NCBI GenBank assembly: GCA_949878595.1
Contig: CATLBG010000002.1
Coordinates: forward strand, 1 to 40,003
From: an uncultured Clostridia bacterium
GTDB taxonomy: Bacteria > Bacillota > Clostridia > Christensenellales > UBA1242
Length of the DNA: 40,003 nucleotides
Direction of reading: 5' to 3'
Below are positions 105-34,169 of the stretch, in pieces. Below the pieces are notes generated by a model. That model made no database searches. It was not told the origin of the DNA and was given only the letters and a program-made list of their open reading frames with translations. Each line of letters starts with the position of its first letter. Positions within the stretch are counted from its first letter, which is position 1. Position numbers and translations under genes: made by a program.

Positions 105-3100
105 ATGAATTTCAAATTCTTTAGTTCGCTAATAAGTGCGACAGGTCAAACAATTGATCCTTCATACATTAGAGATACTTTTATGAATTGGGGTGCTGGC
201 TTAGCTGCTTTAGGAAGTACTCTATTTAATTTTATTTGTGGACTTTTTTATAATGTTGTCAAATGGCTTTTGGCATTCACTGATTTCCTTCAATATTTCA
301 TTCAAAAACTTATTGGTCTAGATTATTGGGTGAATAACAATGTTTATTCAATTGAAGGTGCAACCAGCAGTGATTTGTTGTTTTCATTTCTCTATAACGA
401 TACGATTCAAAAAGTTTTTAATACAATGCTTGCAGTTTTTGCAGTCTTATTAATTATTTTTACAGTATATGCAATCATAAAATCTGAATGGCAATATGTA
501 ACTGGCAAAAACTTTGGTGATGGAACCAACTCAAAAGCTCAAATCATTACAAATGCACTAAAAGCAATTGCAATGGTTCTTGTGTTTCCACTAACCCTTA
601 CCCTAGGAATTATTTCTTCAAATGCAATCCTAGCTTCAATATATAAGGCTTTAAACATAGACATGGCTTCAACATTTGGTGGAACACTGTTTTTGATTGG
701 TAGTAAAAATGCAAATAGATATAGGGTTTATGCAAAATCGGGGCAGCGTTCGGCGATAACTGACACAATTAAGTTTTATGTTAAAGATGGTTTAGTTATC
801 AGGTATGGTTCAACTGATTATAACGATGGTTATATCAATCAATATAGCGACTATGCTCAATATCTTAGAGCTCTTAGAGAGGGTAATGGTGCAACTCTCT
901 ATGAAGTTAACACAATGTTTGATATGATTGATATTGGCAGTGGAAGTTTTTCTGGATACTGCATTGGCATGGATATTGGCAATCAAAGACAATACTACAT
1001 GGTTAGATGTTCATCTGATAATAAAGTTGGAATGTATTATTATCTTAAAAACATTCTTCGTGTAGATATTATGGGTGATGGCGAAACTGGTGATGCTGGC
1101 AATAGAACAATCTATAACGAAATTGGAAGAGGAAACTTTAGCAGTTCAACTGGGGCAAAAGGCTTTATTGATGGCAAAAATTTCAGTGGTTCAAGTTGTG
1201 AAGAACTTTGGAATGCTTTCTGGAATACATGGGGTTATGCTTCAATTTATGATACAAAGCATGACTTTGAAACAAGTCTTGGCTATTCAGTTTTATCAAG
1301 AGCAAATGATGATAGTGCAATTTTAGGAGAAAATAAATCAATTCTTAGTTATATGGGGTTAGAGAGCTTTTCATCAGTAAAAATGCTCTATAACTCTTCA
1401 ATGATGTCTACATATTTTGATGGTGGACAATTTGGATTGGTTCAACTTGCAAATGAATATCATGTTATGGCTGATGTTGTTGACTTTATGAATAATAATG
1501 GCGTAACACTTTATATGCTTGATATGACATCAGATATGATTGACTGGAATTATGGTGAGTATACTGTTGATTCAAAATGGATTTCATATAACAATTCAAC
1601 TAAGAGCTTGAATATTATGCCTTCTGGAACAATTCCAAATGGTGATTCACAATATCCATTTACAAATACACCACTTGCAAATACAACTCCATTTATTGTT
1701 AGCTATTCAGATATGGTTAGTGATGTTGAGTCTGGAAATGTTTTATATACTGCAAAGGCTGGTGTGTCTAATGAACTTGAAGGTTCAAAATTTATTATGT
1801 GTTATAAGGTTGTTGAAAGAGATGGAACTTCAACAAAATATGTTCCACTTGTTAATCGCAAAGCATTTACTGATCCAGTAACAGGCAACAAATACACATT
1901 CTCATCTGATTATTATTCATCAGATTATAGAGGTGTGGTTATTGCAAAAGGTGTTTTTGCAAATAAAACATTGCTTGGTTCAAAAGTTGGAAATATTGAT
2001 GCAATGAATGGTTCTCCAACTTATATTAAAACAGGCTCAAAGATGCAAGATGGAACATCAATTGATGCTAGCAAACCATATTATTATTACATGGATGTTA
2101 GCGGAACAGTTATTCAGTATGCTGGATATCCATCAGCAAACTATCCATCAGACACATCTGCAAGTCTTGGTGGTTTAAGCTTTGGAGATGCTTCAGATTA
2201 TGTGATTAGAAATAATGGCTCAGGTGAGATTTTCCCAACATCAGGTTTCGATTTATCAACTGTGGCAGATGGCTCTAATGCTTTAAAAACCTCAAACTCA
2301 TTCAAAATTCAAAAGAAAGATGATTCTGGTGTTTATCAAGATGTTACAATAACTCCAGAACTACTTAAACAGTTAAATATTAATTTAAAATATTTCTTAT
2401 CAAATGCAGTAGTTGATGAAAATGCTGATCCTGATAGTTATAAAAAGTTGGCTAATGCAACTTTCTCGGGAACTGAATCAGGAAAGACTATTGAATTTAA
2501 ATTTTCTGCAGATGGTGGAACTAAATATTTCTATATTGGCTATTCAGATACAGAATTTTATTTGATGACATTTGACTCTGATAGTCAAACTTACATCAAG
2601 TATGAAGATGCAATTAACAATAATACTATTATTTCAAAATTTGAAACTTTAAATAAGTCTATAGTTAATGGTGAAAGCCCAGGTGATGTTACTTTAGGGC
2701 TTGGAGATAATACTCTAACTATCAGAGATGGAATTTCAGTTGATACTGCAATTTATCCAAATTATAGTGTTACTAATATGGCTGATTCTTCAGGAGAAGT
2801 ATTGCAAAATAGGTTCAAAATTACAGGAACAGATAGTATTACTCCTGATGTTATTCAAACATTGGTTATACCTCTTGAATACACAGTTAGTGCTGGTGGG
2901 TCAATATTCTGCTCAGCAACTTATGCTGGTCAATCAGTTACAGTTAATGATGGTAGTGGAGATAAAACATATTCACTTTTCACATTTGTTTATCAGGGAA
3001 CTAATTATTACCTTACTGTAGAAAGCACTTCAGATTCATTCTCTGTTTGCTCATATTCAACAACTGCTGATGGATTTGTCTCAAATGAGAATTCTAGAGA

Positions 3101-6100
3101 TATTGTTGCAAAATCTCGTAGATATAGACTCATGTATGACTATGTATCATTATCAAATAGTTCGGAATTTGGTAAAGAAATTGCAGTTTTGTCACCATCA
3201 GATTTCACATTCCAAGACAATGTTAGTGGAAATAGCAATTTGCAACTATTTATGACTTCTGAAAAACAGATAGTTATGGGTGGAAAGTATCAATATGTTA
3301 ATATATATTTTGATACAAAGGGAACAGGTAGACTTGTTACTGTTGATGGTAACAATAAAGTAACTTTTGCAGAACCAGTTGAAAAGAATGATGATAACAC
3401 TTCATATTTATATCATTCAGATGAATATACATTTAAGCTTTTCAATTACTATACTGGTGAAGTTGGAGAACCAATAACAGTTGAAACTGGGGCAACAATG
3501 ACTAGCCCAAGCTATGAAAACTTTACTGTAACAAGTTCTTCAATTAATACAAACTGTTGGTATTTAACAACTTTTTCATGGGATAATCTATTTAAAGATA
3601 ATCCAGGCAGATTTGGTGTAAACAGTGCACTTTTAAATCCACATACTCAGTTCTATTATGAATCAAATAAAAAGATATTTGATGAGAAGAATGATGGATT
3701 TACAATCAAACTTACATTGCAAAAAAATGGCACGACTTATAAAGTTACAGCAACAAATACAGGCATGAAAGATAGCACTGGACTTAACAAAATTTATTCA
3801 TTTAAACTTTCAGAAGATGGTCCAACTTATTATATGACTATGCGTGTCAATGCAGATGCTTCTGTTACAATTTTAGATAGTTATGGAAATACTATTGAGA
3901 ATAGTAATTTTGAGGCAACCTTTATGAAGGATCCAACTTACACACTTACTGTTGGTGGAACAACCATAAATAAAGAATTTCATTCTTATGAATTTGGCAA
4001 TTCATTCGTGCAAAATGGTTCAATTTACGTTGAAACTAATGATTTAGTTGATACTTCAACAAGTCTTGGAACAACTAAACTTTATATGAAGCTTACTGAT
4101 AAAAATAGTTTAATTTACTATGATGAAGTTATCAATGGAAATCCAACTATTAGAGCTGCTAGCATTGAAGAAAAAAGTGTAACAAAAGTTGGTCTTGGAC
4201 TTAAAGAATATAACCAGGATTCAGATTCTTTAGTTGCTGCTTCTGAGAGTTCAGAGGAGGGTTGGTCATTCTCTATTTGGGTAAGCCCAGAATTTTCATG
4301 GAATGCTCAAAGCAATTCATATGGTCTTTATAATGGTAGAAACTATGTTGCAACCATATATAAAAATCTTGGAACAGAGGTAAATTCACCATCAGAAATT
4401 GCATCAAAATCAATTCGTATTTTATATGATGGAAACACCTATTATAACATTTCAACTCAAAATAAATATAATGGCGACGCGGAAATGCTTTCTTATTACA
4501 ACAGAATCAAAGGTTCTTTTGTGACAAGTTTTCATAGAACAAGTTCAAATATAGAAAATTGGAAACTCAGTTTTGCGATTTTACCTCTAATTAATTTTAG
4601 AGTACATTTAAGCTTTGGACTTTATTCTATGAATAGAAACATTGAATTGGATAATAGTTTCAAACTTTCAGATGGTATTCAATTTGACTATTTCTTTGAA
4701 AATGCAGATGTTGAACTTGAAACATTCTATATTCAATCAAAAATAAGTTATTGGATATTGGTAATTGCTTCAGTGTTGATTATCAAAACTCTTATGACTG
4801 CACTTTGGGGAATTATCAAAAGATTCTATGAAATCACTCTATACTTCCTCGCTATGCCAGCAGTGGCATCTACAATTCCACTTGATGAAGGCAATAAGTT
4901 TAAAAGTGGAATACAGGAGCCTCTTATTAAGAAGGTTCTCAGCACCTATGGCGTAATTTTGGGCATAAATGTGTTCTTCATATTGCTTGCTCCAGTAAGA
5001 TCACTTTCACAGGTATTCACAGAACAAGATATTGCAGAATCAGGAACCTATTTCCTCAAATATCTTCCAATTAGTGCAAGCATGCTAAACGACTATGTAT
5101 ACATATTGTTTGTGCTTGTTGCTTTCACAATGATAGAAACTCTTCCAGGAGTTATCTCTGGATTAATTGGTGCAGATGATGTTTATGCTAAGGGTAAGGA
5201 AACAAAACAACAAGTTAGTCAGAATCTTTCAGATGCTGCAAATGCAGTGTCAGGAAAAACTTTAATTGATGGCACAAAGAATGTCGTTTCAAAGGCAACG
5301 AACTTTATTCCAGGCAAAAACCTAGTTTCTGGAGCATTTAACAAAGTTAACCAAGCAATTGATCATAAGATTGGTGAATGGGGTGAAGGTTTTGGTAGAG
5401 GCTATAGAGAAAAAATTAATTCTGATGGAAAAGATAAAAAATCAGAAGAGGGTGCACCAGCATCTGGTGGTGGTGGCTCAAGTAGAGCAGCTAATAACCT
5501 TGATGGTGCAACAGAGGCAGAAAATGGTCGCAGCTTCCAAGACTTTAATGAAAACACAGATTCATCTCTATATGATACACTAAAAGCACAATATTTAGCT
5601 GATGAGGGAACATCTGATGAAGAGTTTGCTCGTGCAATGTTCAGCACAAATAATTCTGCAAGTAGCAGTGCAATTGCAAATCTTATAAGAAATTCTCACG
5701 GTTCTAGTGGTGAAATGGGCAAACTTGTTTCTAGCATGCTTGGTGATAAATCAATTAATGACTTAGACGATTCTGCATTAGTTAACCTTGCAAAGGAATC
5801 AGGCAACTTTAACAAACTTTCTGATTTTGCAAATAACCATATCTCATTAACACTTGGTGAAGGAGTTTCAGGAACTCTTCAAGAAAAAATTATTAGTAAT
5901 GCAAAGAAAGACCCAGAACTTTTAGGCGAAGCAATAATGAATCTTTCAAATGGAAAATTCAGTTCAGCTGCAGATGCTTTTGCTCATAGAAATGACGCTG
6001 ATGTAAAGAAATTGATGGGTTCACAAGGATTTGCCGATGAAGTTCTATTGATGGCTCAAACTCGTGATTTGCAAGGCAAATTCAAACTTGGTGCTTGGGA

Positions 6101-6599: not shown

Positions 6600-6619
6600 A
6601 CATTAGGAGAGCAGGATAA

Positions 6620-9600
6620 ATGAATCCTAAATTTCAAGAAGAAATTAAATCTTATTTGAACTCTTTAGAAGAAGACCCAGAAAAGGGACTTGAACTTTTG
6701 CGTAGGCTTCAGGGTGAAGACCCTAAGGCCTACAATGAAGCTGTTGATGCAATAATTGAATTGCTCCCATCAGATCAAATTCAAGCCCTTTCAAGAATGG
6801 GTACTGAGCAAGGTTATCTTGCATTGAGTCAAGCTGAACAGCAAAAGCTTTTTAGTGTAGTTGGAAGCGAAGAACTTGCAAAAGAGTTGAGTTATCACGA
6901 GGTTATGGAAGTTTTAAACAACAAAGACCTTCGTGAGATTTCTGATGAGCTTGAAGAAAGGGCAGATAAGCAAGATAATGTTGATTATGCCTATAATTTT
7001 GAAAAAGATTTAATTGATATTGAAGAACTCAGAAAATCGCTAATGAATGGACCAGAAGAAGATGTCCAAACTTTTGTTGAGAGGTATTTTTCTGGATCTG
7101 GATATGAAAATAATAAGCATAATAAAGAACTTATAGCTATGAGATTGTGGGGCAGAGATAATGTTGTTTCAGATATAATTAGAGGAAACGAAAAAGAAAC
7201 TGAAACAGCTATAAAAAAGTTTGAAAAAGAAAATAAAGATGTAAAATTTGCATCACTTGACCTTTCTGCTCAAAATAGAATTTTAAGAGAAGCATATGAG
7301 GCTTTATCTAATGATAACAAAGAAAATGCCGATCTTGCATTTGCAAACTCACTAATAGTAAACAAACCAGCAAAAGAAAAAACAAAACTCGCTCAAAAGA
7401 TATTAGATGAAGCTAAAGATTTAAATAAGTCTGTTGAAGAATTACTTTTTGCTTCAAAACAATTAAGATCAGAAATTGGACTAGCTGAATGTGAATTTAA
7501 AAACTCAAATTTAGATCAAAAAGTTATTGAGAATCTTGATGAAAAAATTTTTGAAAACTTGCATAATCAAATAATCAAAGATCGTTTTGATGAAACATCA
7601 AAGGTTATTGAATCGGCAAAAAAGCGAATAATAGAATCAAATATAGAAAAAAGAATTAAAGATGGAAAGATTGAAGTAACTGATATTCCAGATCCAAGCG
7701 AAATGGATTTTGATGAAAAAAGAGATTTTAATTATAGAGTTTCATTATTAAATAGACATTTAAGGGAAAATCCAGAGTCTGATATTCTTAAAAATATCTT
7801 GCTTAACACTCACTTAGTAAATGAAGATGTAATACTGAAAGAACTTATTTCAAGACAAGAAGATTTAAAAAAGAATGCTTCAAAATTATCATATGACGAA
7901 ATTAAGCAATTTTTAAGGGTAGATGTTATAAATAGCTATTTCAGTGAAAACCAATCACTTAAAACAACTATGCTTCAAGTTGGTGGAAATAATTTACTTT
8001 TAACTTTCAATGAGAAACAATTAGATGCAAAATTTATAAATACAGTTAATCGCAATAAGAATATTAGAGCAGATGTTTTAAAAGATGCATTTATTTCTGG
8101 CAAAGAAAATAATAAGATTTTAAGTGAAATTAAAACAGTTTTATCGCTTGATAAAGAAACAGTTATAGATGATTATAATTTTGATAAACTTTCTAAGCAG
8201 GCAGCAGAAAAAGTTTATATTGCAGAAAACGGAAAAATTAAAAAAGAAAAAGAAGCAGAAGTGCTCGCTTCAGTGAAGAAACTCTACAGAGAAAATTATC
8301 TTTTCAGGTCAGTTATTTATTCAGAAATGACAGAAGTTGTTAGTTATATGAGTGAAAGCCCAGATAGTGTTCAGGCAAAATTCTTTGGCGATTATGTGCC
8401 TATGAAAATGCCTAAATCACTTTCTGAAGCAATTAAAACTGGTAAAAATGCAGTATTTAGTTTGGATTCAAGATTTAGTCGTGCAATAAGTGCCTCGTCA
8501 AGCATTATTGGTGATCCAAAGAAACAAGTTGCTGATGAAGACAGGGCTAAACAATCTCAAGAGATTAGAAGACAGATTGCTATAATGACTGACAAAATCA
8601 ACAACTTAAGCACAAAACAAAATGGTAGAGAATATTCTGTTCAGGCAAAAGAAATCTTGGGTGAAAATTATAACAAAATATATAATTCAAAAACTCTCAT
8701 TACTCAACTTGTTGGTGGTGGAGTGGAAAATGAAAGTCCTGCAATTCAGCAGAGAGATATTTTGAAAGGACTGCAAACACTTATGCTTCAAGCAGTGAAG
8801 AGAATAGATTCAATTTCACTTTATATTCCAGCACCATATGAATTTAGAAATGATCCAAAATTTAGAGATAAATTGTCGTTAAAATCTAGCAGTGAAATTG
8901 TTAGTAAAAATGTTGATTATGGCAGATTTGCAGTGTTGACGCTTGTGAAGAAGGGAACAAATGCTGTTGCTCAAACAAAAATGCAACAAGACTTCATGAA
9001 CAAAGACCCAGAGTATAAAATGATTGTTGAAGAGTTTAACAGAAGGTATGAAAAGTTCTCAGAAACTGAAGAAAAACTTGAAGACCTTAGACAGTCGCTT
9101 GAAAAGCTACAGGGTAAAGAGACAGGTTCTTCAACTGCTAGAAATATGGTTAGAAATATTAAAACAGCAATTTCAGATCAAGAGAAAAAACTAATCATTT
9201 TAGAGTCTTATATGCTTAAAGCTAAAGAGACAAAAGAAAGTTATGAGAAAAAATTTGCTGCAAAATTAGATAAAACAGCAAAGAAACAATCAATTGAAGT
9301 TAATAGTCAAGTTGCAGATATCTTCACATATCAAGATGTATTCCTTAAAGGAAATAATGTTCCAATCAATCCAAAAACAGATACAAAGCTTGCTATGCAA
9401 ATTAGAAAAGTTGTTAACCAATTTATATCTAATATGCTTGCTAGTATTGATAGGGTAAATGAAACCTTAAGGCTTAGAAATGTAAAACAAATTTCACTTA
9501 AAAATACAAGACTTGGTGGTGTAGTAAAACAGTCTGGCATTATTATAAAAACATTGACTGAGGAAAGAGATAAAATTAGTGATGAACTTAAAAATTTGTC

Positions 9601-9742: not shown

Positions 9743-9786
9743 AAAGTGCGAAAAAGTTACAAAATTATTAAAAAAACGCTATATAT

Positions 9787-9815
9787 TTGCTAGTTTATTG
9801 TAAAAGTTATATAAT
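9787..9815 (+). promoter_or_regulatory. Near-consensus sigma-70/SigA-type promoter inside the operon, upstream of the VirB4-like gene
   Basis: TTGCTA (9787-9792), a 17-nt spacer, then TATAAT (9810-9815). It lies in the only sizeable intergenic gap of the operon (9743-9835). AAGGAG sits at about 9822-9827 before ATG 9836. Confidence 0.5.
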
Positions 9816-9835
9816 TTAATTAAGGAGAAAATTAG

Positions 9836-12523: not shown

Positions 12524-12544
12524 AATCACTTAGGAGAGAAACCC

Positions 12545-18500: not shown

Positions 18501-21500
18501 AATATGCATATGATCACTCAAATAGCACAATTTTTGGCAACTGTGAATTTGAAGAATTAAAACAAGACTTCTTAATAAAAGTTTATGTTATTAAGGGTGC
18601 TGATGGTGATAGAAATTATTTAATGATAAATGGTCATTATTATAACATCACAGATGCACAAGATGGTGTAACTGGCAAGTTAACTAATGCAGTTAGCAAA
18701 TCAGATTTAATCAATGATGGCTATAGTTATTCATTTAAATTAGATGCAGGCGAATTGTATTATGACCTTAGCAGATCAAGAGAACAAATCTCAAGAGAAC
18801 TTGTAAAATCAAATGATAGTTTGGTTTATAATTTAACAGTAGATGACAAAACATATACTTACTTTAGAAAAATAGACAGTAACTTAGAGAGAGTTTATAG
18901 AGTTAGTTTAACAACTCTTGATACTTATAAAATTTCTGTTATGGTTCGTGATGTTAACTGGGTTCAAAAACTCATGAACGATATGCAAGTAATTTATCCA
19001 GATCTCAACTGGGCAAACTTAATTGCAACAAATGGCTGGTTTGACACACTTGGTGAATATCATTCTTCTTATGCATCAGGACAATTTGTTGCAAGTGGCA
19101 ACACTGCAAACATAACTGCAGCTGGTATGGTTCTTTCAGAATTCTTGCTATCTATCGCAAACACAAGTTATGCGGGTTTTGCAGAATATGAATATAGTTC
19201 TGTATTTGATGAAGATGTAATAAATGCTTTAATGTTAGCAATGCTTGGTGAACAAAAATATGAAACATTAAAAATTCAAGCAAAAGTTTTTGTTGAAATG
19301 TTTAATGTTGGCTTTGCTCAAATTCTAGATGACGTTGCTGCAGAAAGAGGGCTAAATATTGTTGATGGTGAAGTGAGCAACCTTACAATGAGCATATATA
19401 AATCATATTTAGCTTCAATCTTACTTTCATCTGATCTTGGTGAATATTTATACACAATTGCAACTAGAGTTTATTCTCAATATGCTATTTATGAAACTTT
19501 GGCATTTGCAAGTGGAGACTATGCAAATTATTATGCATACATAAATGGTTTTGCTGATGAAACAGGAAAAGTTGTTGATGCATTTAAATATGCAACCTTT
19601 AGAGAACTTGTTGAATTTGAAAATACAAGCTTAAAAGATGATGCAGTTCCAGTTTATACATTTAACTATTATGCTGTTTATAGAGCTATAATTAATAGCA
19701 ATGCAAGCAAAGCAGAAACAAACTTAAGTTTGCATTTTGGTGAGCTTGATGCTTTGGTTGAATGGGCAAAAACGATTGGAATAACAGAGCAGCAACTTAA
19801 GAATAGAGGTTACTACAAAACAGGTTATACTGAAAAAGATATCAGAAATCTTTTAACTGGTCTTGGACTAAATAATGTGTTTGTTCCAGTTTCATATGAT
19901 ACACTTATTTCAAAATTAAATGCAGAATATGAAACAAAATATACATCATATCGTGGTTCGACTGATAGATTTAATGATAATGATGAATCACATTTTAGCT
20001 ATATGCTTCATGTTTATTGGTCAATTCGTCAAGACTTAAAAAATCGTATGATTCTAACATCTCCAGTATATCTTAGAATTTATGAAGATTATATTTATGG
20101 TAACATTGATAGGTGGGAAATTGAATGTGACATGACCATAAATGCATCTTCAAGTTTAATTCAATACTATGACATATACAAATTATTATTACAGACAAAA
20201 AAATTCTCATATTTAGGTTCATATCTTCTTGCATATTTCCCAAATCTAGTATTTACACTTGAAACTGAAGAAGATTATGATCAATTTGTTGAAGATTTCA
20301 CAATAGGAAATTATTCAATTGATGCTAATTCGATGGTTTATAGGCTAAAAGAAATATTCCCATCGTCAACTACTTATGGAAAAATCTTAAACAAAGTTTT
20401 TGCATCAGACACACTAAGCCCTAGTGATATTATTTTGAAAACAAAATTAATGTTTGATTCAGAAGAGGGTAAAGTTAGTTCGTGGAACACAATTGTTCAA
20501 ACAAGAGATAATATAGAAGCTTTGCTTAGCGAACTTGCAGATGTTATGGATCTTGCTGTTGGTGAAAAAACACCAAATGGATCAATTCACGTAAATTTCA
20601 CACAAAATGTTTATAGTGAAACATATAATTCACTTTCAAGCATATATGAAAAGTTAAATGACTATATTGGAACTCAAAATACAATTGATAAGATTGAAAA
20701 AGCAAGCATAACATTCACTTTGGCACAGTTCAGCAACAACTATGTTGAAAGTGGATTTGAGTTTACTATTAGAAATAAGGTTTACACTTTAGATACAGCA
20801 ATTTCTGCTCAAAGACTTGCAGAATATGTTTATGGTGGAGCATATCTTGATCAGTTTGGAGTATATGCACAATATACTAGTCCAACTTTCACAGGAATTA
20901 TTCACCCAACAAAGGCAGTAGATACAGAAGATGGTAATAGAGTAAAAACTAAGTTAAACTGTTTCACAGAACTTAGAGAATTTGCAGGAAGCATTGCAGA
21001 CTACACTGCAAAATTATACTTCTTAACAAACTTAAAAGATCTTTCAGATAATGTTAGTGATTCAATGCTCTTAACTGAAGAGCTATATGCAACAAATGGC
21101 TATATTGGTGCATACTTTGGTAATTCTGGAGGCAGTTATAAAACTTCACTAGAATATCTAATCTTAGATCATATTGTTGCAGAGGAAGAAATTTATACAG
21201 ATACACTTTTAAGATTGATTTTTGGTGATACAGAAGATTCTTTAAATAGAATGAATTGCAGTGATATTTATATTACTCTTTTAGAAAAATTCTTAAGCGG
21301 AAGCACAAACTATAGTCCAGCAGAATCAGAATTTATTAATAACAATAAGAATAATGGTTTGATTAAAGTTGCCGAAAATGGTTCAATTGCTTCGCTTTCA
21401 GAAGAATTTATTAGACTTGGTCTTAGAAGATATCTTGTATATATTCAAACAACAGATAGTAATATAAAAACCATTAATACTGGTTCAGGTTACACCTATT

Positions 21501-23554
21501 TAACTGGAGGTGACATTGAAGGCTATTATGGTTTATATCAACCAAATGGTTATAACTCTCATGGTTATTATGGTGAGGGCTACACCGCTAGTGATAGAAT
21601 TCATATAGCTTTTAAGAATGTTATTTCTTACCTTACTATAAGTGAAGAGCAAAAAGAAGGTGATATTGACTTAGGTATTGAAGGAAAGACTGTAGATCTT
21701 GATGGCATGACATTCAAAGATTTAAAATCTTATTTAATTGATTCTTTGGTTGATTATCAGAAAAATGAAGGCGAGGGAGCAGAGAATGCTGCTAGATATT
21801 TGACACTTTTCAATCTAATTAGTGGTCAATTTAACTATATGATTAATGAAGATGGCAAGGGCTTAAAGAGTATTGGCACAACACTTTCTTCAGTTAATAA
21901 AGATAAGCAAGATGGTTCAAACCTTGTAAAATATAAAAATGAAATAATTTATCAGGGTAATGACTATGGAACAAAGTCAACTTTATATGCAAGCTTTAAT
22001 ATTGACAGGTCAACAAGAGGCACAATCTTGAAACTTTGCGGAATAGAAAACAGACCAATTGAAGAGCTTGTAAAATTAGAGTATGATGAGCTTTATCAGA
22101 GAAATGGTTCATATGATGAGGCTAAAGGCGATGTATTCATTCTATGCTCATATGATGATGAAACAGGAAAATATGTTCCATTCCTTGCGAGCAACAGTAA
22201 ATATTCTGGTTCTTTTGGTGGAACAAATTACATGGATTATATCAATGATTATGGCCACAGAATTTTCACAGATTATTATGATTCAGAATATGGCGTTAGA
22301 TTTGCATATCCAATCATTGCAAAAGGGATTGTAACTCCAGATTTAAAACCAACTGCAATTAAGATTGAAGACAATGTTGCTAAATTCTATAGAACAGACA
22401 TAACTGCTACTGCAAAGGTTGAAGAGAGTGCTCTTCAAAAAGTTAATGCTTCAGTAGAAACAACAACTGTTGGATATGTGCAATATGTAAATGTTTCTTC
22501 ATTTAACAACATTCAATCAAAAAATGAAGGTAACACTATGTTTATTGGTTCATCAGATATAATGAGCTACATAAACTCAGATGCAAGTGTATACTATGTT
22601 CAATATACAAACGTCTATAATATTTCAAAAGCTGATGGCTTTGACGGAATTTCAGTATTAGATTCATTCTCGGCATTCTTCAATATGTCAATTCAAATGC
22701 ATTTATTAATGGTTCTTGCGTTCATAACATTAGTTCCATTATTATTCAATGCATCTGGTGCAGTTTTAAGAAGAATTTTAGATTTGATTTTATTGGTTCT
22801 TGCTGGACCATTATGCATTTCAATGAATTCATTAAAGCATACAGATGAAGAACAACAGGCATATAGCCAGTGGAAGAAATATATGTTCAGCACACTTCTT
22901 AGTGTGTTTGGATTAATAATTTCATTTAATCTATACTTTATCATGATTTCAATAGTAATGAACATGAATTTTGTTAGTGCTGGTGACTCAACCATGGAGA
23001 GAATTAGCATGATTGGTGGACTAAACTTTGTTACAGCACCAATCCTCAATGCTGCAATAAGAATCATATTTGTGGTTGTTGCAACCAACATAATAGAAAA
23101 TGCAGCAGATATGCTTCTAAATATGCTCACTGGTGGAAAGGCAAACAGCTCATTTAAATCAGCTCTTGGTGGCGAAACAATAATTAAGTCTCTTGGAAGC
23201 TTAAAGGATTCAATGGTTAAAGATATAAGAACTGTAACCTCAGGTGCAAGAGATGTTATTAATGGAAAAATTTTAATTGAAGCAAAGAATGCAGTTGTAG
23301 AATCCCTTCCTGGTGTTCAAGTTGTTAGAGGTGCCGTTGAAGGTGTTGGAAATGTAAATAACTATCTAAAATCTAGAGAACTTTATAAAAAAGCAAGAGC
23401 GAAGGGAATAAATCCATTAGTTGCAAGAGCTGCAGCAAAAGAATATAGAAATAACTACAAAAAACAAAGAGATGAAATAAATAAAAGAAGACAGCAATAT
23501 GCTCAAAGTTTCTATGGCAGAATGGGTCTAAACTATGGTGGAGGCAAAAAATAA
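12545..23554 (+). CDS. Giant polytopic membrane protein (3669 aa), paralogue B; repeat-rich ectodomain, function unknown
   Basis: An uninterrupted 11-kb ORF with AGGAGAG 7 nt before ATG 12545. It has an N-terminal 3-TM module like the 105 and 23573 genes. Shared motifs: AEQYQVMADFIDY (from 13415) and GDVFILCSYDDETGKYVPFL...YPIIAKGIV (22127-22333). A C-terminal hydrophobic cluster lies at about 22697-23145, followed by a basic tail of about 135 aa. Confidence 0.93.
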   Translation: MLNMLKSLMCLIAAEPCSAVSHGQSFLAAMSPSLGWIVIKNVFLWLWNWILSLIWIIEKFVLGIMDALQAIVYEFLGIGTTVDDYLNFATKNDATKILVDTFKAILAVAIVLMIIFTIVAIIRQEIETATNAKGKGNEETNKKGPIVMKLFKGIMSAILLPFAMIAIIGAVNSVLTAFNNALQGENQTTIAGQVLATSTYDVNKYRQYANNNKRVPVLIEAYNVDDYGADQKEELVYKIKSVSVQEKLINTATDINKNLLLSFNESLTYENNKLTNNSKYADYYESFVCTAEQYQVMADFIDYCELTNTNFYIKAIDDNDIEWKYVDSSVFDAANMSLNITYRDANDLDGDGKTNDTYTVSFSMGFDVTSPISNALDSISALLGLNQYGDMKYNEMERDPNSINMVQWANEKVSLHFSYGFKINDMSTWTPADEILMYEYYHFSSNNSLADYSFSDLSYENRGNATLDAYKIVYRDYYPDAGAFSSEKVIYVVYINGSYYKIKKSETEVDSYGNKFYVLDANEDAKFLEKGYTILSEEPEKAELKFVGKQGNFSLNNPSTWSYTDQILIYEYYKDLSYNNTFSNYNISDLGKGIQVSTYKIRDYDAAGNETENRYVLLNGTYYLVSAPSSGSNYVLTGSTSSSNFLESIEDKYLTTYYNYVGSNGNAIKIEDIRGEFGISTNTTTNKTANDFIIDSDDGVIFTNLERNINYVLSEEIEFNLKYTPGFDYRDVDTWSYKDYFLFYLYAKYLNNSSLTVDSLKYTPLPGIVGKFNGKTYYKIQSQLTENNSKYKTVYLCVDDINNISTQNIKNVINEQTTLENNRFSTNDDLAFTLITDPYTVFSKVETEIRDFTFSSNVSFENVNEWKMRDYILFLLDSRGIIGLPANFENYQYNSVVYKGVSIGANLTSNLYSFGSGDKTIYLNENYLVNLGYNDFDEFLDTKLITFIAKRLSNSSNGEIKKLLLEREDLISNIANSDAYNSNTHVFASLVNALINIYGFGAESADKILDIYNDLSTYTYTNSNFIADDLSTYTIFDLAIYLFTGRATGRYNNYIANVNGEMKYIIGDYAVSISNSSIFSSTISQESYVTSGAVNLGGQSLTEYYKDSGLSSKVLMVSKGENSLSHANNLDYIFVSDAVNGNYTNLDVIIAGLNLTQKVSYELYTNGVSNYLLLGEKDNTLYYLTVDNFNMDNIASLSTNSTISLNSNINPFVVSGTYNSFSGSTGSNNYNLMDSVIFELTNNTSPASYRIYTSSLLGGKSYISIDGTFVEYNSSIVNFDRLASGYNDYEDLVDILINNYYNSYVVGNIGSTTGNTNISYNVSDFDLEDINTYTPLRLILNKIGVTSDVSGYLTRSANRLYFVIRLTDINGKVTTYNINVTDFLDADGNDIQSEIVKLRYRAALCYQTSGAFKSPSEVIDDLENLNQNIENAISSYVVSSYTSNPLNFTKEMTEEDISSWNWLDIAHYYVFGTFRTTNDFVLYSDVEVNGNERYLYVGLNSGGTTRFVRFASSILSADGTVKLEDFDSGNRRVSFSLDSDSSLLGLLYYKYTGSESGSVNYAKIGSGEDARRIYSILDQNTGSYVFYIGYEDQSKESSINSVVSANSYTYNLSATTENLYTWNLLDLLIKAADGNLSNKAYNMSSRIYTIDGNRYMLVNGYYINIDLVGATLSEKLQDGSTTEYIRTIEKTRIPSAESFFGYSSNTINDVNSSSAFNYGFIRLRASNVSKKTNPLVTDSTTGNIIASNEVKLYFSEGFDFSDYSSWKNSDFMLYYLFKTGHMDSSVQTFQYYVNLGYVPATMYALESYDNYGSVTINKVYKVGEGECNFGSFANLNASSIEAYRNSVSSDVFNSFIRNIADYNFINYNIWQLQYERQLTNIFTQSNSDADLFVSIDGKPVTNPGIGTFGISITTDINARDFIYNNYYYFNVNTEDEELVNLRVSTSISDSLNDSTETKIINLKLSEGFDINDISTWTILDYIIVREYAYDHSNSTIFGNCEFEELKQDFLIKVYVIKGADGDRNYLMINGHYYNITDAQDGVTGKLTNAVSKSDLINDGYSYSFKLDAGELYYDLSRSREQISRELVKSNDSLVYNLTVDDKTYTYFRKIDSNLERVYRVSLTTLDTYKISVMVRDVNWVQKLMNDMQVIYPDLNWANLIATNGWFDTLGEYHSSYASGQFVASGNTANITAAGMVLSEFLLSIANTSYAGFAEYEYSSVFDEDVINALMLAMLGEQKYETLKIQAKVFVEMFNVGFAQILDDVAAERGLNIVDGEVSNLTMSIYKSYLASILLSSDLGEYLYTIATRVYSQYAIYETLAFASGDYANYYAYINGFADETGKVVDAFKYATFRELVEFENTSLKDDAVPVYTFNYYAVYRAIINSNASKAETNLSLHFGELDALVEWAKTIGITEQQLKNRGYYKTGYTEKDIRNLLTGLGLNNVFVPVSYDTLISKLNAEYETKYTSYRGSTDRFNDNDESHFSYMLHVYWSIRQDLKNRMILTSPVYLRIYEDYIYGNIDRWEIECDMTINASSSLIQYYDIYKLLLQTKKFSYLGSYLLAYFPNLVFTLETEEDYDQFVEDFTIGNYSIDANSMVYRLKEIFPSSTTYGKILNKVFASDTLSPSDIILKTKLMFDSEEGKVSSWNTIVQTRDNIEALLSELADVMDLAVGEKTPNGSIHVNFTQNVYSETYNSLSSIYEKLNDYIGTQNTIDKIEKASITFTLAQFSNNYVESGFEFTIRNKVYTLDTAISAQRLAEYVYGGAYLDQFGVYAQYTSPTFTGIIHPTKAVDTEDGNRVKTKLNCFTELREFAGSIADYTAKLYFLTNLKDLSDNVSDSMLLTEELYATNGYIGAYFGNSGGSYKTSLEYLILDHIVAEEEIYTDTLLRLIFGDTEDSLNRMNCSDIYITLLEKFLSGSTNYSPAESEFINNNKNNGLIKVAENGSIASLSEEFIRLGLRRYLVYIQTTDSNIKTINTGSGYTYLTGGDIEGYYGLYQPNGYNSHGYYGEGYTASDRIHIAFKNVISYLTISEEQKEGDIDLGIEGKTVDLDGMTFKDLKSYLIDSLVDYQKNEGEGAENAARYLTLFNLISGQFNYMINEDGKGLKSIGTTLSSVNKDKQDGSNLVKYKNEIIYQGNDYGTKSTLYASFNIDRSTRGTILKLCGIENRPIEELVKLEYDELYQRNGSYDEAKGDVFILCSYDDETGKYVPFLASNSKYSGSFGGTNYMDYINDYGHRIFTDYYDSEYGVRFAYPIIAKGIVTPDLKPTAIKIEDNVAKFYRTDITATAKVEESALQKVNASVETTTVGYVQYVNVSSFNNIQSKNEGNTMFIGSSDIMSYINSDASVYYVQYTNVYNISKADGFDGISVLDSFSAFFNMSIQMHLLMVLAFITLVPLLFNASGAVLRRILDLILLVLAGPLCISMNSLKHTDEEQQAYSQWKKYMFSTLLSVFGLIISFNLYFIMISIVMNMNFVSAGDSTMERISMIGGLNFVTAPILNAAIRIIFVVVATNIIENAADMLLNMLTGGKANSSFKSALGGETIIKSLGSLKDSMVKDIRTVTSGARDVINGKILIEAKNAVVESLPGVQVVRGAVEGVGNVNNYLKSRELYKKARAKGINPLVARAAAKEYRNNYKKQRDEINKRRQQYAQSFYGRMGLNYGGGKK
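13780..18660 (+). repeat. Protein-level array of at least 8-9 degenerate modules of about 60-90 aa inside the 3669-aa gene
   Basis: Module starts seen at about 13783, 14170, 14690, 15090, 15595, 16880, 17375, 17795 and 18420. Recurrent pattern: hydrophobic-x-hydrophobic-x-F-S-x-G-F-D-x-x-D-x-S-T-W-x-x-x-D-x-I-L-x-Y-E-Y-Y ... N-G-x-Y-Y-x-I. Examples: LKLSEGFDINDISTWTILDYIIVREY...MINGHYYNI, and LYFSEGFDFSDYSSWKNSDFMLYYLF. The repeats are divergent at DNA level. Confidence 0.7.
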
Positions 23555-23572
23555 TACAAAAGGAGAAAACAG

Positions 23573-26500
23573 ATGATTGCAGGTAACATGACAAACTTAA
23601 TAAGTAGCTTAGTGAATTTTGATTCATCTGTTTTCTCACGCTTTGTTTGTGCAAATAATATTTTTTCTGCAGTTCAAAAAGTCATGAATTTCTTGTATGG
23701 ACTATTCTATACAATTGCAAAATATCTATTATATTTAGTAGATTTAATTTTCTCATACATTCAAAAACTTGCTGGATTAGATATGGCTATGGATTCACTT
23801 GAAAGCATGATATCTCCAGATAGTGATATTGTCTTTAATTTGCTTATTTCAGGCAGTGACTTAGTCACGGCAATAATTAGAAACTTAATAGTTTTGGCTA
23901 TTGTAATGATTATAGTTTTTGCAATTATTGCAATAATCAAAGGGCAATATGATGCAATGAAAAAGAATTCGCAGGCTAGCCCTTTTGAAACTTTAAAAAC
24001 AATGTTAAAAGCATTTTTGCTATTATTAGTTACACCTCTTTTTACGATAGGAGGAATAATTGTTTCAGATTTGTTGCTACAAACATTATATAGAGCAACT
24101 AATGTAAGCGGGGCAATGTCGCTTGGCACGCAAGTGTTTGTGTCGGCGTCATCTTCTGCAAATGCATATAGACTTTATGCACAAAATGGAGGACGAATCC
24201 CAATAACTTTTGATGGAACAAAAAGCTCAGAGATAAATGCATATTTTAATGATCATTCAGTTTCAGATGGTTTTGTTAAGTATCTCCAAGATAGCAAAAA
24301 TTCGGGAAATGAAACTAACCCAATTTATGCTACCTACATGACATTTTTGTCATCAGATTTCACTCCTTATATCTCAATGAATGATATTTTAAGTAGTAGT
24401 GATGAGGTCAAAAATACAAAAGAACTATATGATACTTATTATGATTACTATATTCCAAGTGATGGAGAGTCGTTAATTTATCCAGATTTAATGAAAATTC
24501 AATCATATGCAGAACAGTATTATGTTATGGCAGATGTTATTGATTTCTGTGTTAAATCTGGTTCAGAGCTATACATGAGAACAATTGAGCAAGTGCTTAG
24601 AAGCGTTTGTAACTTAAAGGACGACTTCGCAGATAAAGAAAAGATTTTCAGCACACTTGTGAATCAATATGAAATTAAATTTTTCAATGGCTATGACACA
24701 GAAACTAGTCAGCCAATAAATGAAGTTTTAATTAGAACCACAAACGATTATTTAATGAATATTCGCAGAGGTTCACTAATTAGTTTTAATAGCAACTACT
24801 ATGCACCTGATGATTCGGGTGATCCAACAGTTAGAATGCAAATTAGAGTGATTCATGTGGTTGGTGAGACTGATGAACTCAGGGGTGCAAAATTTATTAT
24901 GACCTCAAAAAATGAGGTTCAGACAGCAGATGGCATTTCTCAAAGATATTTTATGCCTCTTGTCAATGGTTATGTTGGAAACTATGGCACAGAATTTAGG
25001 TCAGACTATATTAGAGATGGAAGTATTGTTGTTGCAAAAGGTGTATTCAGCAATTCAAAATATCCAACTGCAATAAAAGTAATTTCTGGTGATATAGATA
25101 AACCGATAATAGCTTTTTATAGGGAAGATATAGATGCTCAAGCAACTGGTCAGCTTGGTGATTATTTCTCGCTCAAGGTTGATGCTCCAAAGGGTGGTTT
25201 CCTAGGAAAACTTATAAAGATGATAAAAGCACTCTTTGACCCATCAGAGCTTATTCCAGAAATCAATGTCAATTTTGATGCACTGCAAATAACCTACGAT
25301 AAATCTAATGGTCCAACTGAAGTTGATACACTCATAGACGGCAGAATACGGCTGGGTTATTTCATGAAATTTAATCCAACTTATCCAACGACAGATCTTG
25401 TCACAAATTTTTGTCTATCATATACTGAGCTATATAGTGCTCCAAAAATGAATTATCTTTTATTGGTGGTTGGCTCATTTTTGCTTGTTAAGGTATGTTT
25501 AAGTGCTATAACATCATTAATTGAAAGAGCTTATGAGCTCTTCCTAATATTCATAACCTATCCTGCGGCTTGTGCTACTATTCCAATTGATAATGGTGGG
25601 GCATATGGCACATGGCTCAAAGGCTATTTTGAGAGAATATTTAGAGCGTATGGATTTATTTTAGGTATAAATTTTGTGCTTATGTTATTCCCAATAATTC
25701 AAAACATAGCGTTTTTCTCGCAAGATGATATAGGAACTTCAAAAATAGTTAGAAGAGTTGGTGTATTATTCTTCAATGTTATGACAGTTCGTCAAATAAC
25801 AGAGTCTCTAAACTTCTTTATTGCAATAATATGTGAGCTCATTGCATTCACACTCATTGAAACAATTCCAGAAACTGTTTCAACTATTATTGGTGGAAAA
25901 GATGCAGCTCTTAACATTAAAGACAACAATGTATTCAAAAAACTCACTGAAAAAGCTGGAAAAGTGACAAGTACAGTTGGAAAAGTTGTTGTTCCTCCAC
26001 TTAAAACACTAGAATATGTTGGATTAAGCATGTCAAGAAGTCAAAAAGCAAAACAGAAAAAGAAACAAATGAGAGATCAACTTAGAAGTAAAGTTATGAC
26101 TAGTGTTGGACTTGATGTATTTAGTTCTCCTTTAACTGAAAAATATAAAGATGAAAATGGCGTGGAAAGAAGGAGATTTACTCAACAAGCCAAAAGTCAA
26201 TGGGGTCTTGGTAGTAAAATTAAGGAAGAAGCAAAGCGTAAGCATGATTTTAAGAAAGCTAAAGCTGAGCAAGATGAAGCTAATGAAAATCTATTTAAAG
26301 TACTCAATGACCCTCTTTCAACAAAAGCTCAAGTTACTGATGCTCTTGCTCACTATGAAGCTATGGCAACAAAGACATCATCAACTACTAGAAATAAGGG
26401 ACTTAAATGTAATCAATGTCATCGTTCATTTACTATTGATAAACTAATGGCAGAAGATAACAAGCGTAAAACAATTATTGAAAAGGATTCAGAAGGTAAA

Positions 26501-26656
26501 GAGGTTAAAAAGAATAATCCAAATTACTTTAAAGATACTCTTAAACAAAGAGGAGGATGGCTTTGTCCAGACTGCTTCATGCCAGGTATGGATCCTGGAA
26601 GTGCTCCAAAACTTGAACCTGTTGATAAAAAAGACAAAGGTTCAGAAAGTAAATAG
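23573..26656 (+). CDS. Large polytopic membrane protein (1027 aa), paralogue C, the minimal version of the family, with a C-terminal CxxC...CxxC zinc-ribbon-like tail
   Basis: The ORF has AAGGAG 8 nt before ATG 23573. It has an N-terminal 3-TM module. Shared motifs: AEQYYVMADVIDF (from 24509) and GAKFIMTSK...YFMPLVNG...IVVAKGVF (24884-25048). A hydrophobic cluster lies at about 25448-25900. The K/R-rich tail carries CNQC (26408-26419) and CPDC (26564-26575). Confidence 0.92.
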   Translation: MIAGNMTNLISSLVNFDSSVFSRFVCANNIFSAVQKVMNFLYGLFYTIAKYLLYLVDLIFSYIQKLAGLDMAMDSLESMISPDSDIVFNLLISGSDLVTAIIRNLIVLAIVMIIVFAIIAIIKGQYDAMKKNSQASPFETLKTMLKAFLLLLVTPLFTIGGIIVSDLLLQTLYRATNVSGAMSLGTQVFVSASSSANAYRLYAQNGGRIPITFDGTKSSEINAYFNDHSVSDGFVKYLQDSKNSGNETNPIYATYMTFLSSDFTPYISMNDILSSSDEVKNTKELYDTYYDYYIPSDGESLIYPDLMKIQSYAEQYYVMADVIDFCVKSGSELYMRTIEQVLRSVCNLKDDFADKEKIFSTLVNQYEIKFFNGYDTETSQPINEVLIRTTNDYLMNIRRGSLISFNSNYYAPDDSGDPTVRMQIRVIHVVGETDELRGAKFIMTSKNEVQTADGISQRYFMPLVNGYVGNYGTEFRSDYIRDGSIVVAKGVFSNSKYPTAIKVISGDIDKPIIAFYREDIDAQATGQLGDYFSLKVDAPKGGFLGKLIKMIKALFDPSELIPEINVNFDALQITYDKSNGPTEVDTLIDGRIRLGYFMKFNPTYPTTDLVTNFCLSYTELYSAPKMNYLLLVVGSFLLVKVCLSAITSLIERAYELFLIFITYPAACATIPIDNGGAYGTWLKGYFERIFRAYGFILGINFVLMLFPIIQNIAFFSQDDIGTSKIVRRVGVLFFNVMTVRQITESLNFFIAIICELIAFTLIETIPETVSTIIGGKDAALNIKDNNVFKKLTEKAGKVTSTVGKVVVPPLKTLEYVGLSMSRSQKAKQKKKQMRDQLRSKVMTSVGLDVFSSPLTEKYKDENGVERRRFTQQAKSQWGLGSKIKEEAKRKHDFKKAKAEQDEANENLFKVLNDPLSTKAQVTDALAHYEAMATKTSSTTRNKGLKCNQCHRSFTIDKLMAEDNKRKTIIEKDSEGKEVKKNNPNYFKDTLKQRGGWLCPDCFMPGMDPGSAPKLEPVDKKDKGSESK

Positions 26657-26690
26657 TATTGAATTTTCTTTTTAAATATTACTTATAAAA

Positions 26691-26720
26691 AAGACGGGCA
26701 GTCATGCTTGTCTTTTTTTG
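26691..26720 (+). terminator. Rho-independent terminator closing the giant-gene operon
   Basis: AAGACGGGCA (26691-26700), loop GTCA, then TGCTTGTCTT (26705-14). This gives a 10-bp stem including two G-U pairs, followed by TTTTTTG. Confidence 0.75.
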
Positions 26721-28142: not shown

Positions 28143-28167
28143 CTTTAAAAAATGTTAAACTTATAAT
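28139..28167 (+). promoter_or_regulatory. Consensus SigA-type promoter for the small membrane protein gene
   Basis: TTGACT (28139-28144), a 17-nt spacer, then TATAAT (28162-28167). It overlaps the rluD stop codon. Confidence 0.6.
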
Positions 28168-28198
28168 AAACATAGAATATTTAGGGGGAGAAAATAAA

Positions 28199-28530: not shown

Positions 28531-28567
28531 AATAATTCAGCTAAATTTGGCTGAATTATTTTTATTT
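28531..28567 (+). terminator. Hairpin plus T-run (intrinsic terminator or attenuator) between the two small membrane protein genes
   Basis: AATAATTCAGC (28531-28541) and GCTGAATTATT (28550-28560) form a perfect 11-bp stem with an 8-nt loop, followed by TTTATTT. Confidence 0.6.
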
Positions 28568-28585
28568 AAAGGAGAGAGGATTCTC

Positions 28586-34158: not shown

Positions 34159-34169
34159 AAAATATAGTT

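Follow-up and report, generated by a model that had tools for sequence, protein, structure and literature searches.

To our knowledge, nearly all functions of type IV secretion systems (T4SSs) in Gram-positive bacteria involve conjugation by mobile elements. The rvh T4SS of Rickettsiales is chromosomal and vertically inherited in host-dependent bacteria with reduced genomes, and it carries duplicated pilin-like genes. Whether monoderm bacteria have dedicated T4SSs of their own is a long-standing question (PMC12857230). Patescibacteria carry a chromosomal T4SS that lacks a relaxase, has arrays of PF18895 pilins, and is essential, for example in Southlakia epibionticum (PMC12102498, PMC12857230). 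Hosts of this type have very small genomes and are predicted to depend on partner cells (PMC12102498, PMC12857230, PMC12306168). The integrative and conjugative elements (ICEs) of Mycoplasma lack a relaxase of the canonical kind, and the DDE transposase that they use is distal (PMC6030558). Their CDS16 protein is essential for transfer of ICEA in M. agalactiae and is regarded as a likely VirB6 (PMC6030558, PMC12857230). Extended forms of VirB6 have been discussed previously, and the VirB6-like proteins ConG, Orf15 and TcpH have 700-900 amino acids (aa) (PMC12857230). Here we describe a locus of an uncultured Clostridia bacterium in which a VirB4-type ATPase is encoded among three giant membrane proteins. 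Most of this locus lies in a stretch of 40,003 nucleotides (nt) (contig CATLBG010000002.1 of assembly GCA_949878595.1, positions 1 to 40,003, forward strand), hereafter called the window.

The whole module spans ~32 kb and includes nine genes, with housekeeping genes on both sides. It is probably a domesticated, relaxase-less, chromosomal and vertically inherited T4SS with triplicated extended VirB6-like subunits that has been kept for a host function, a view that we hold with moderate confidence. Ownership by the host is suggested by the presence of the same junctions at deep divergence, by the lack of mobility genes and flanking repeats, and by purifying selection. The components are VirD4, VirB4 with a hairpin that may be VirB3-like, VirB2-like pilins, a VirB6-like subunit and a surface protein; VirB1, VirB8 and a relaxase are not among them. 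Every recognisable part belongs to a described family, and the functions proposed below are predictions made from sequence.

In the window, the block from 105 to 26656 carries five open reading frames (ORFs) on the plus strand, called g1, g2, virB4, g4 and g5, with products of 2164, 1040, 895, 3669 and 1027 aa and successive gaps of 20, 93, 21 and 18 nt. A GGAG-type Shine-Dalgarno site precedes all five starts. The operon closes with an intrinsic terminator at ~26687-26720 that has a 14-bp stem, a GUCA loop and a U-run (dG -16.3 kcal/mol, z = -3.9). None of 200 shuffled sequences folds with equal stability, and a simple consensus scan had missed this hairpin. Thus, our ORF list and fold predictions agree with an initial annotation of this DNA, which had reported five co-directional genes of these sizes and spacings, a ribosome binding site at each gene, one strong terminator, and lspA directly downstream (its start is at 26744). 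GC content is flat at 0.29-0.35 over the block and across its boundaries, and the window has no tRNA gene or Rfam match to offer as a target for integration. The features are as follows.

105 (or 45, with a TTG start) to 6599, plus strand: g1, extended VirB6/CDS16-like polytopic protein, paralogue 1; 2164 aa, consisting of an N-module, a ~1300-aa ectodomain insert, a C-module and a ~400-aa tail.
222-764, plus strand: g1 N-module (aa ~40-220) with 2-3 transmembrane (TM) helices; first half of the CDS16 model, from BLASTP and hidden Markov model (HMM) matches.
4725-5390, plus strand: g1 C-module (aa ~1541-1762) with 3 TM helices; second half of the CDS16 model.
6620-9742, plus strand: g2, soluble, E/K-rich protein of 1040 aa, predicted to be all-helical and with no TM segment.
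9787-9815, plus strand: promoter-like site TTGCTA-17 nt-TATAAT in the 93-nt gap upstream of virB4; a consensus match only.
9836-12523, plus strand: VirB4-type ATPase of the Mycoplasma-ICE CDS17/Mbov_0397 family, 895 aa; NF045975, PF19044.
9908-10045, plus strand: N-terminal membrane hairpin of VirB4 (aa ~25-70), from a hydropathy peak at 25-43 and the hydrophobic stretch visible in the sequence.
12545-23554, plus strand: g4, extended VirB6/CDS16-like protein, paralogue 2; 3669 aa with a non-repetitive ectodomain insert of ~3150 aa.
12680-13195, plus strand: g4 N-module (aa ~46-217), from NCBIfam, BLASTP and HMM matches.
22676-23347, plus strand: g4 C-module (aa ~3378-3601), from BLASTP and hydropathy.
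23573-26656, plus strand: g5, extended VirB6/CDS16-like protein, paralogue 3; 1027 aa with a ~400-aa alpha/beta ectodomain and a ~250-aa helical tail.
23681-24208, plus strand: g5 N-module (aa ~37-212), from BLASTP, HMM and an AlphaFold2 (AF2) model.
25430-26011, plus strand: g5 C-module (aa ~620-813), from NCBIfam, BLASTP, HMM and the AF2 model.
~26687-26720, plus strand: intrinsic terminator closing the operon, from RNA folding.
26744-27232, plus strand: lspA (PF01252, E 3.5e-32), the first housekeeping gene to the right, which marks the boundary and is not part of the machine.
6785-8740 of locus L001 (1.2-3.1 kb upstream of the window), minus strand, divergent: VirD4, 651 aa (PF02534, E 3e-44).

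Profile searches of the five operon products place VirB4 in NF045975, match the three giants to halves of the CDS16 models, and give no match for g2. The initial annotation had named the 895-aa product as a VirB4/TrsE ATPase and had identified this assignment as a point where its interpretation might fail. The assignment holds, because the protein scores 600 bits (cutoff 590) against the equivalog model NF045975 ('Mbov_0397 family ICE element conjugal transfer ATPase'), with residues 6-887 covering model positions 3-893 of 894. It also matches PF19044 (E 4e-20), DUF87 and AAA_10, and both its Walker A (GKSGCGKS at residue 523) and Walker B (IIVVIDEAH at 758) motifs are intact. Identity to the copies on Mollicute plasmids and ICEs is ~26-33%. 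The N-terminal hairpin is possibly a VirB3-like fusion. The VirB4 of one relative has a weak match to DUF5592. The promoter-like site in front of virB4, which is close to the sigma-70 consensus, may give virB4, g4 and g5 their own transcript, and such a match could also arise by chance in an AT-rich genome of 31% GC.

The three giants had been proposed to be paralogous polytopic proteins, and this is borne out by two modules that g1, g4 and g5 share in BLASTP comparisons (E 1e-6 to 1e-23). The N-module covers residues ~40-220, and the C-module covers residues 1541-1727 in g1, 3378-3601 in g4 and 620-813 in g5. The g1 N-module matches g5 residues 37-212 with an E value of 8e-20 and g4 residues 46-217 with an E value of 2e-15. 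Hydropathy predicts 2-3 TM helices for each N-module and 3-4 for each C-module. Thus, the giants constitute one family, which is that of the CDS16-type polytopic proteins. None of them has a Pfam match, including to TrbL/VirB6 (PF04610), and their matches to NCBIfam NF045889 (Mbov_0396) and NF045848 (MMCAP2_0566) are to half-models only, with scores of 55-88 bits that are below the cutoffs of 70-90. Residues 47-221 of g4 correspond to model positions 2-162, whereas residues 1535-1690 of g1 and 617-776 of g5 correspond to positions ~165-315. The stretch in g1 matches MMCAP2_0566 with an E value of 1.5e-19 and Mbov_0396 with one of 2.5e-9, and g5 reaches 88.1 bits against MMCAP2_0566 (cutoff 90, E 6e-25). 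The two halves lie 400-3150 aa apart, and none of the giants carries a contiguous ~300-aa CDS16 domain.

The space between the modules is filled by a central loop insert of ~400 (g5), ~1300 (g1) or ~3150 (g4) hydrophilic residues, and N, S, T and Y residues abound in the giants. The inserts contain no repeats at either the DNA or the protein level, and the lack of internal repeats rules out a reading of the giants as tandem-domain adhesins. When 1200 residues of the g4 insert were compared with 1.84 billion representatives, only 103 clusters proved homologous, and nearly all of these are g4-like proteins of 1,000-4,708 aa or short fragments, which argues that the inserts are restricted to this family. 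HMM comparisons link the giants to compact homologues of 440-930 aa, and there is no separate compact VirB6-like gene in the module. The AF2 model of g5, made from 33 sequences, has a predicted local distance difference test score (pLDDT) of 69 overall and of 85-94 in the ectodomain. The initial annotation had suggested comparing predicted structures with VirB6 and related families by Foldseek; searched in this way against the PDB, the g5 model matched nothing significantly (best E 0.17).

No match in Pfam, NCBIfam or PDB sequences was found for g2, and no TM segment is predicted. Its AF2 model, made from three sequences, is all-alpha with low confidence (pLDDT 51). Foldseek gave no sign of a relaxase-like fold, and its matches are meaningless. 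A word-index search recovered only three homologous proteins. Relatives carry a g2-like stretch inside the g1-like ORF, and on this basis g2 is most likely the detached cytoplasmic C-terminal tail of g1.

The rest of the module lies in the 5.4 kb to the left of window position 1, which we read from contig CASRBT010000004.1 of the metagenome-assembled genome (MAG) GCA_949433855.1; the window is identical to part of this contig. This part includes VirD4, two pilin-like genes and a surface protein gene. VirD4 scores 257.8 bits against NF045973 (conju_CD1115; cutoff 250), the C. difficile CD1115 family, and has TrwB_AAD_bind and TraG-D_C domains and the Walker A motif GASGTGKT. Behind it is a gene for a 744-aa surface protein with a signal peptide and a C-terminal TM anchor, and with no lipobox Cys. 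The pilin-like genes begin ~170 nt upstream of g1 and code for paralogous proteins of 99 aa (u99) and 132 aa (u132) with two TM helices each. The larger protein matches Mbov_0395 (42.2 bits, cutoff 40) and the T4SS_pilin family PF18895 (27.5 bits, cutoff 26.6), whereas u99 reaches 26 bits against Mbov_0395, below the cutoff of 40. A hairpin and T-run follow the second pilin gene at ~9750-9790 of locus L001 (~110-150 nt before window position 1), so the pilin genes seem to be transcribed apart from the g1 operon. Separate transcription is common for abundant pilin subunits.

These genes alter one conclusion of the initial annotation. Its statement that the window holds no VirD4, relaxase, integrase or hydrolase domain is correct for the window, but the lack of a coupling ATPase was partly an artefact of a window that starts after these upstream genes. 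Its other suggestion, that mobility genes and attachment (att) repeats should be looked for further upstream, gave VirD4 and none of the hallmarks of integration. We screened 10 kb upstream of the window, which includes 4.5 kb to the left of the module, and 13 kb downstream. Neither the module nor these flanks yielded a relaxase, an integrase, a transposase, a gene for replication or partition, or a peptidoglycan hydrolase. No att-like flanking repeat of at least 14 nt was found, and the only match across the module boundaries is T-rich and 13 nt long. Pfam and NCBIfam searches (E <= 0.01-0.05) detected no VirB1 hydrolase or VirB8 NTF2-like domain in the nine module proteins, and a divergent domain of either type may be hidden in the giant inserts.

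Past the surface protein gene, the left flank consists of murI, rpsT, an M28 peptidase gene, holA and comEC. The right flank consists of lspA, rluD, two small ORFs, tig, clpP, clpX, engB, a phosphoesterase gene, mraZ, rsmH and a gene for a PASTA-containing penicillin-binding protein (PBP). The PASTA-domain PBP, MurI and the dcw genes show that the host is monoderm and, as had been presumed, walled. The small ORFs between rluD and tig, at 28139-28525 (128 aa) and 28547-28903 (118 aa), keep their position in the relatives L088-L090 with 38-70% identity; the former has only a weak, sub-threshold match to DUF6069, and the latter has no family. An unusually long gap of ~850 nt precedes mraZ (33704-34560); apart from one minus-strand ORF of 112 aa (33733-34071) it is empty, and it gives no match in Rfam. 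At 90% identity, the ClpX of the window clusters with a 49-aa fragment annotated as a helix-turn-helix protein from 'Holosporaceae bacterium Namur', which is probably mis-binned or mis-annotated.

Related genomes carry the module at the same site. In L088, L089 and L090, whose g5 proteins are 55, 38 and 33% identical to that of the window, g4-like and g5-like genes are followed by lspA, rluD, and further along by tig, clpP, clpX and engB and then by mraZ, rsmH and the PBP gene. Five metagenomic relatives with VirD4 identities of 53-60% have a divergent VirD4 gene followed by a surface protein gene, whose product measures 641-1020 aa and has both a signal peptide and a TM anchor, and on the other side two pilin genes, a g1-like gene and virB4. 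In four of these five (L092, L094-L096), which reach far enough, rpsT stands next to the surface protein gene, with murI, M28 or holA nearby. In the tier with 62% VirB4 identity the right neighbour is a different one (gap), which would fit rearrangements that accumulate over long periods. None of the loci compared showed an empty site. The survey of relatives proposed in the initial annotation thus supports a kept site at the right junction in L088-L090 and at the left junction in L092 and L094-L096, in a comparison of individual loci.

The rates of change differ strongly among the parts. Relative to L088, identity is 95% for VirB4, 93% for ClpP, 88% for ClpX, 81% for Tig and 80% for RluD, compared with 61% for the C-terminal part of g4 and 55% for g5. 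Relative to the species representative L024, it is 98% for VirB4, 72% for g4, 69% for g1 and 52% for g2. Nei-Gojobori estimates for these four genes in the window and L024 give proportions of synonymous differences (pS) of 0.52-0.67 in each, which indicates a common divergence time. The ratio dN/dS is 0.020 for VirB4, 0.15 for g4 and 0.25 for both g1 and g2. The proportion of nonsynonymous differences (pN) is ~0.09 in the TM modules versus 0.2-0.5 in the inserts and tails. All genes are intact and under purifying selection.

Relatives of VirB4 are present in at least 478 GTDB species-representative genomes. All of the 80 genomes listed are uncultured MAGs, and wherever a source is stated it is the gut of an animal or a human (human, mouse, chicken, rabbit, roe deer, yak and buffalo). 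Identities fall into tiers of 98%, 81-88%, 56-63% and 42-46%. Three orthologous giant paralogues are kept in relatives with 56-98% VirB4 identity, and at loci with at least 56% identity that reach far enough the order is always g1-like, VirB4, g4-like, g5-like. In these tiers a distance of hundreds to thousands of residues separates the N-module from the C-module, with protein sizes of 1862-4960 aa (g1-like), ~1780-4700 aa (g4-like) and 813-1724 aa (g5-like). The g4 orthologue of L013 is present as two overlapping ORFs, at 10166-16363 (2065 aa) and 16333-20088 (1252 aa). The gene may truly be divided, or a frameshift or a fault in the assembly could be the cause.

The tier at 42-46% is built differently. 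Here the modules are adjacent in compact homologues of 440-930 aa that stand upstream of virB4, either singly or as tandem sets of two or three, and all 11 of the compact homologues scanned are full-length members of the CDS16 family (best 246 bits, cutoff 90). They are found in related gut Clostridia with reduced genomes, including the family UBA1242. Among the 25 of 64 Pfam families shown for their neighbourhoods, there are VirD4, pilins and housekeeping enzymes, and no relaxase or integrase. From these features, the giant form looks to be derived by central-loop growth from a compact system that was already chromosomal.

Several further observations concern these distant loci. Near nine compact loci (L045, L059, L066, L078, L084, L086, L075, L063 and L067), the 89 ORFs include six matches to Rce1-like CAAX proteases and five to SBP_bac_3, which may be conserved accessory genes of the ancestral system. 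At L061, L074 (Ca. Caccovivens sp.), L077, L080, L081, L083 and L085, where VirB4 is 42-45% identical, a different giant of >3300 aa begins ~20-110 nt after virB4. It lacks CDS16 modules, carries just one signal or anchor helix at its N-terminus, and runs off the end of the locus. The occurrence of this different giant indicates that the pairing of VirB4 with a giant surface protein arose more than once in gut Clostridia. The MAGs CALWEA01 (L056 and L060) and CAJJUK01 (L051 and L081) each have two VirB4 loci on different contigs, of the compact-VirB6 type and the signal-peptide-giant type, which indicates that paralogous T4SSs coexist in one small genome.

These findings are consistent with a machine encoded by two arms, one with the divergent surface protein and VirD4 genes and the other with two pilins, g1, g2, VirB4, g4 and g5. 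The putative VirB6 subunit (CDS16) would have been triplicated, with each copy gaining a large, fast-evolving loop between its TM bundles. The N- and C-terminal bundles of the three paralogues would make up a membrane translocon together with VirD4 and a hexamer of VirB4, the latter held in the membrane by its N-terminal hairpin. The giant loops might project through the peptidoglycan, standing in for the missing VirB8 and VirB1 wall parts, and along with the pilins and the anchored surface protein they could contact another cell. The two ATPases would then drive a substrate, either DNA or protein, into that cell.

More distant VirB4 relatives are found in Ca. Caccovivens and Ca. Caccopulliclostridium, which belong to the family UBA1242 and have genomes of 1.0-1.1 Mb with 34-35% GC (PMC8035907). 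A 2025 study described UBA1242 genomes of <1 Mb that lack biosynthetic pathways and standard transporters, and an obligately symbiotic or parasitic life has been predicted in a 2025 paper for some of these hosts, which have unexplained 'hypothetical membrane proteins'. Related lineages are predicted to depend on partners (PMC12306168). By analogy with these distant relatives, we infer that the genome of the window may share this lifestyle. We offer, quite tentatively, the idea that small-genome, partner-dependent gut Clostridia related to UBA1242 turned a channel of the Mycoplasma-ICE type into an indispensable organelle for host interaction, in parallel to Patescibacteria and Rickettsiales. 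The three giants would then serve as a wall-spanning conduit and a rapidly diversifying contact surface for attachment to a microbe or host cell and for exchange of macromolecules or nutrients with it.

Some results weigh against a domesticated T4SS with VirB6-like giants. The equation of CDS16 with canonical VirB6, considered likely in the literature, is itself a deduction there and gains no confirmation from fold or profile comparisons here: the R388 TrwI/VirB6 chains appear in the Foldseek results for g5 only at E 2.5-3.9, and a profile of the compact homologues matches neither PDB sequences nor Pfam. The proposed topology, in which the loops lie outside and the tails inside, was derived from hydropathy and from a model of medium confidence. 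The screen for mobility genes covered the flanks, and other parts of the genome could still hold a relaxase or recombinase, and the relaxase-free neighbourhoods of the compact homologues reflect 25 of 64 Pfam families. Finally, the retained VirD4, whose domain is of a DNA-binding type, would suit DNA transfer equally well. In one rival reading, the locus is a chromosomal conjugation machine for DNA exchange within the lineage, comparable to the transfer of chromosomal DNA in Mycoplasma or to distributive transfer in mycobacteria, and the ectodomains would serve as adhesins for mating or as determinants of partner recognition. The retention of TrwB_AAD_bind and TraG-D_C in VirD4, the homology to the channel by which Mycoplasma ICEs bring about chromosomal transfer (PMC12857230), and surface parts that evolve quickly enough for mate recognition all fit this scheme, and comEC nearby on the contig indicates that the lineage handles DNA. 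However, no relaxase or oriT was identified, and the conservation of VirB4 (dN/dS 0.02, and more conserved than ClpX) is beyond what would be expected for a facultative sex apparatus. We regard DNA exchange as the main role as unlikely, though it is the strongest of the competitors.

The initial annotation had also considered a divergent ICE or conjugation module, and its recognisable parts do all fall in families named after Mycoplasma ICEs or Gram-positive conjugative elements. Moreover, the nearest plasmid-borne VirB4 proteins are encoded on Spiroplasma, Mesomycoplasma and Bacillus plasmids, and the absence of a canonical relaxase is shared with Mycoplasma ICEs, whose DDE transposase is distal (PMC6030558). 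An integrase and relaxase might thus lie further out, and the module might still be mobile, or recently have been so, or be a decaying remnant. Such an element would be hard to reconcile with housekeeping genes that abut both ends (murI/rpsT/holA/comEC and lspA/rluD/tig/clpPX), with flanks of 4.5 kb on the left and 13 kb on the right that hold no recombinase, relaxase, flanking repeats or GC shift, with the same junctions in genomes at pS ~0.5-0.67 (saturated synonymous divergence), and with a VirB4 that is more conserved than ClpX and ClpP. Decay is further contradicted by intact genes under purifying selection. Therefore, we disfavour this explanation and consider it improbable. Even less probable, in our estimation, is that the giants are adhesins or S-layer-like proteins that simply sit beside a small T4SS. 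Their N/S/T/Y-rich composition, the lack of ectodomain homologues outside the family, and the giants with only a signal peptide that follow VirB4 in other lineages would agree with this, but every giant has both CDS16 halves at its ends, and the TM modules are the most conserved parts (pN ~0.09 versus 0.2-0.5). In addition, the positions of g1, VirB4, g4 and g5 are fixed across the clade, and the module's lack of a compact VirB6-like gene leaves the giants as the sole candidates for that subunit. Among the possibilities raised by the initial annotation, we therefore favour an envelope or contact apparatus derived from a T4SS, kept by the host.

Our literature search found no paper describing this system, and the giants of the 'Hodor' megaplasmid (PMC12934698) belong to a different, sortase-linked system. 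The architecture is not known from earlier descriptions, with three VirB6-like subunits whose putatively extracellular loops range from 400 to >3000 non-repetitive, lineage-restricted residues, and with no VirB1 or VirB8. Among extended VirB6 proteins of walled Firmicutes, those of the mating-pair formation class FA (MPF-FA; ConG of ICEBs1, Orf15 of Tn916 and TcpH of pCW3) are likewise polytopic, have extra domains, and work with VirB4 and VirD4. However, they are single-copy proteins on mobile elements that carry a relaxase, an integrase and a CHAP/SLT hydrolase, and the giants match none of their families in NCBIfam or Pfam. The rvh systems of Rickettsiales have several tandem VirB6-type paralogues, enlarged by hydrophilic domains, that adjoin virB4, and a chromosomal location and duplicated pilin-like genes are also seen here, as is, probably, vertical inheritance in host-dependent bacteria with reduced genomes. 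In contrast, rvh systems are diderm, include VirB7-11 and belong to the TrbL/VirB6 Pfam family, whereas the present system is monoderm, shows no TrbL/VirB6 match in sequence or fold, and has its insert in a central position between the TM bundles, reaching >3000 aa.

The closest set of parts is that of the Mycoplasma ICEs ICEA and ICEB. VirB4 belongs to the same equivalog as their CDS17 (NF045975), the pilin-like protein to the Mbov_0395/CDS15 family, and the channel protein to Mbov_0396/MMCAP2_0566 (CDS16). The local order CDS15-CDS16-CDS17 is the same, and VirB1 and VirB8 are missing from both. The Mycoplasma ICE and Rickettsiales VirB6 analogies drawn in the initial annotation are therefore apt, given the CDS16 and CDS17 families and the tandem enlarged paralogues beside virB4. 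Its description as non-canonical needs qualification, because the parts come from a described set (CDS15, CDS16 and CDS17 plus VirD4), whereas the triplication, the giant inserts and the chromosomal fixation are indeed unusual. Unlike the Mycoplasma elements, the locus is at a fixed chromosomal site in a walled Clostridium, with neither inverted-repeat ends nor, within 10 kb upstream of the window and 13 kb downstream, a DDE transposase (CDS22). The CDS14 lipoprotein is absent, with a signal-peptide and TM-anchored protein in its place. The CDS16 homologue is triplicated with inserts of 400-3150 aa, and VirD4 is of the CD1115 family, compared with CDS5 in the ICE.

The T4SS of Patescibacteria, or candidate phyla radiation (CPR), is also monoderm and chromosomal, has no relaxase nearby, carries arrays of PF18895 VirB2-like pilins, and keeps VirB4, VirD4 and VirB6. 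It differs in retaining VirB1, VirB3, VirB8 and a VirB6 of ordinary size, and in having its own VirB4 clade, whereas here those parts are undetected and the VirB6-like protein is giant and present three times. The system described here may likewise be essential and its host epibiotic; indirect hints of essentiality are the VirB4 dN/dS of 0.02, a conservation above that of ClpX, and the predicted partner dependence of related lineages (PMC12306168). If our interpretation is correct, the locus is a candidate for how uncultured gut bacteria contact partner cells, and the gradation of compact and giant forms in nature could be used to learn what extended VirB6 domains do. Overall, the parts appear to resemble the minimal channel of Mycoplasma ICEs, and the genomic status and pilin content to resemble the Patescibacteria T4SS (PMC12102498, PMC12857230). 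Patescibacteria are so far the only strong case of a host-owned T4SS in monoderms, and this locus would be a second, independent one, in Bacillota.

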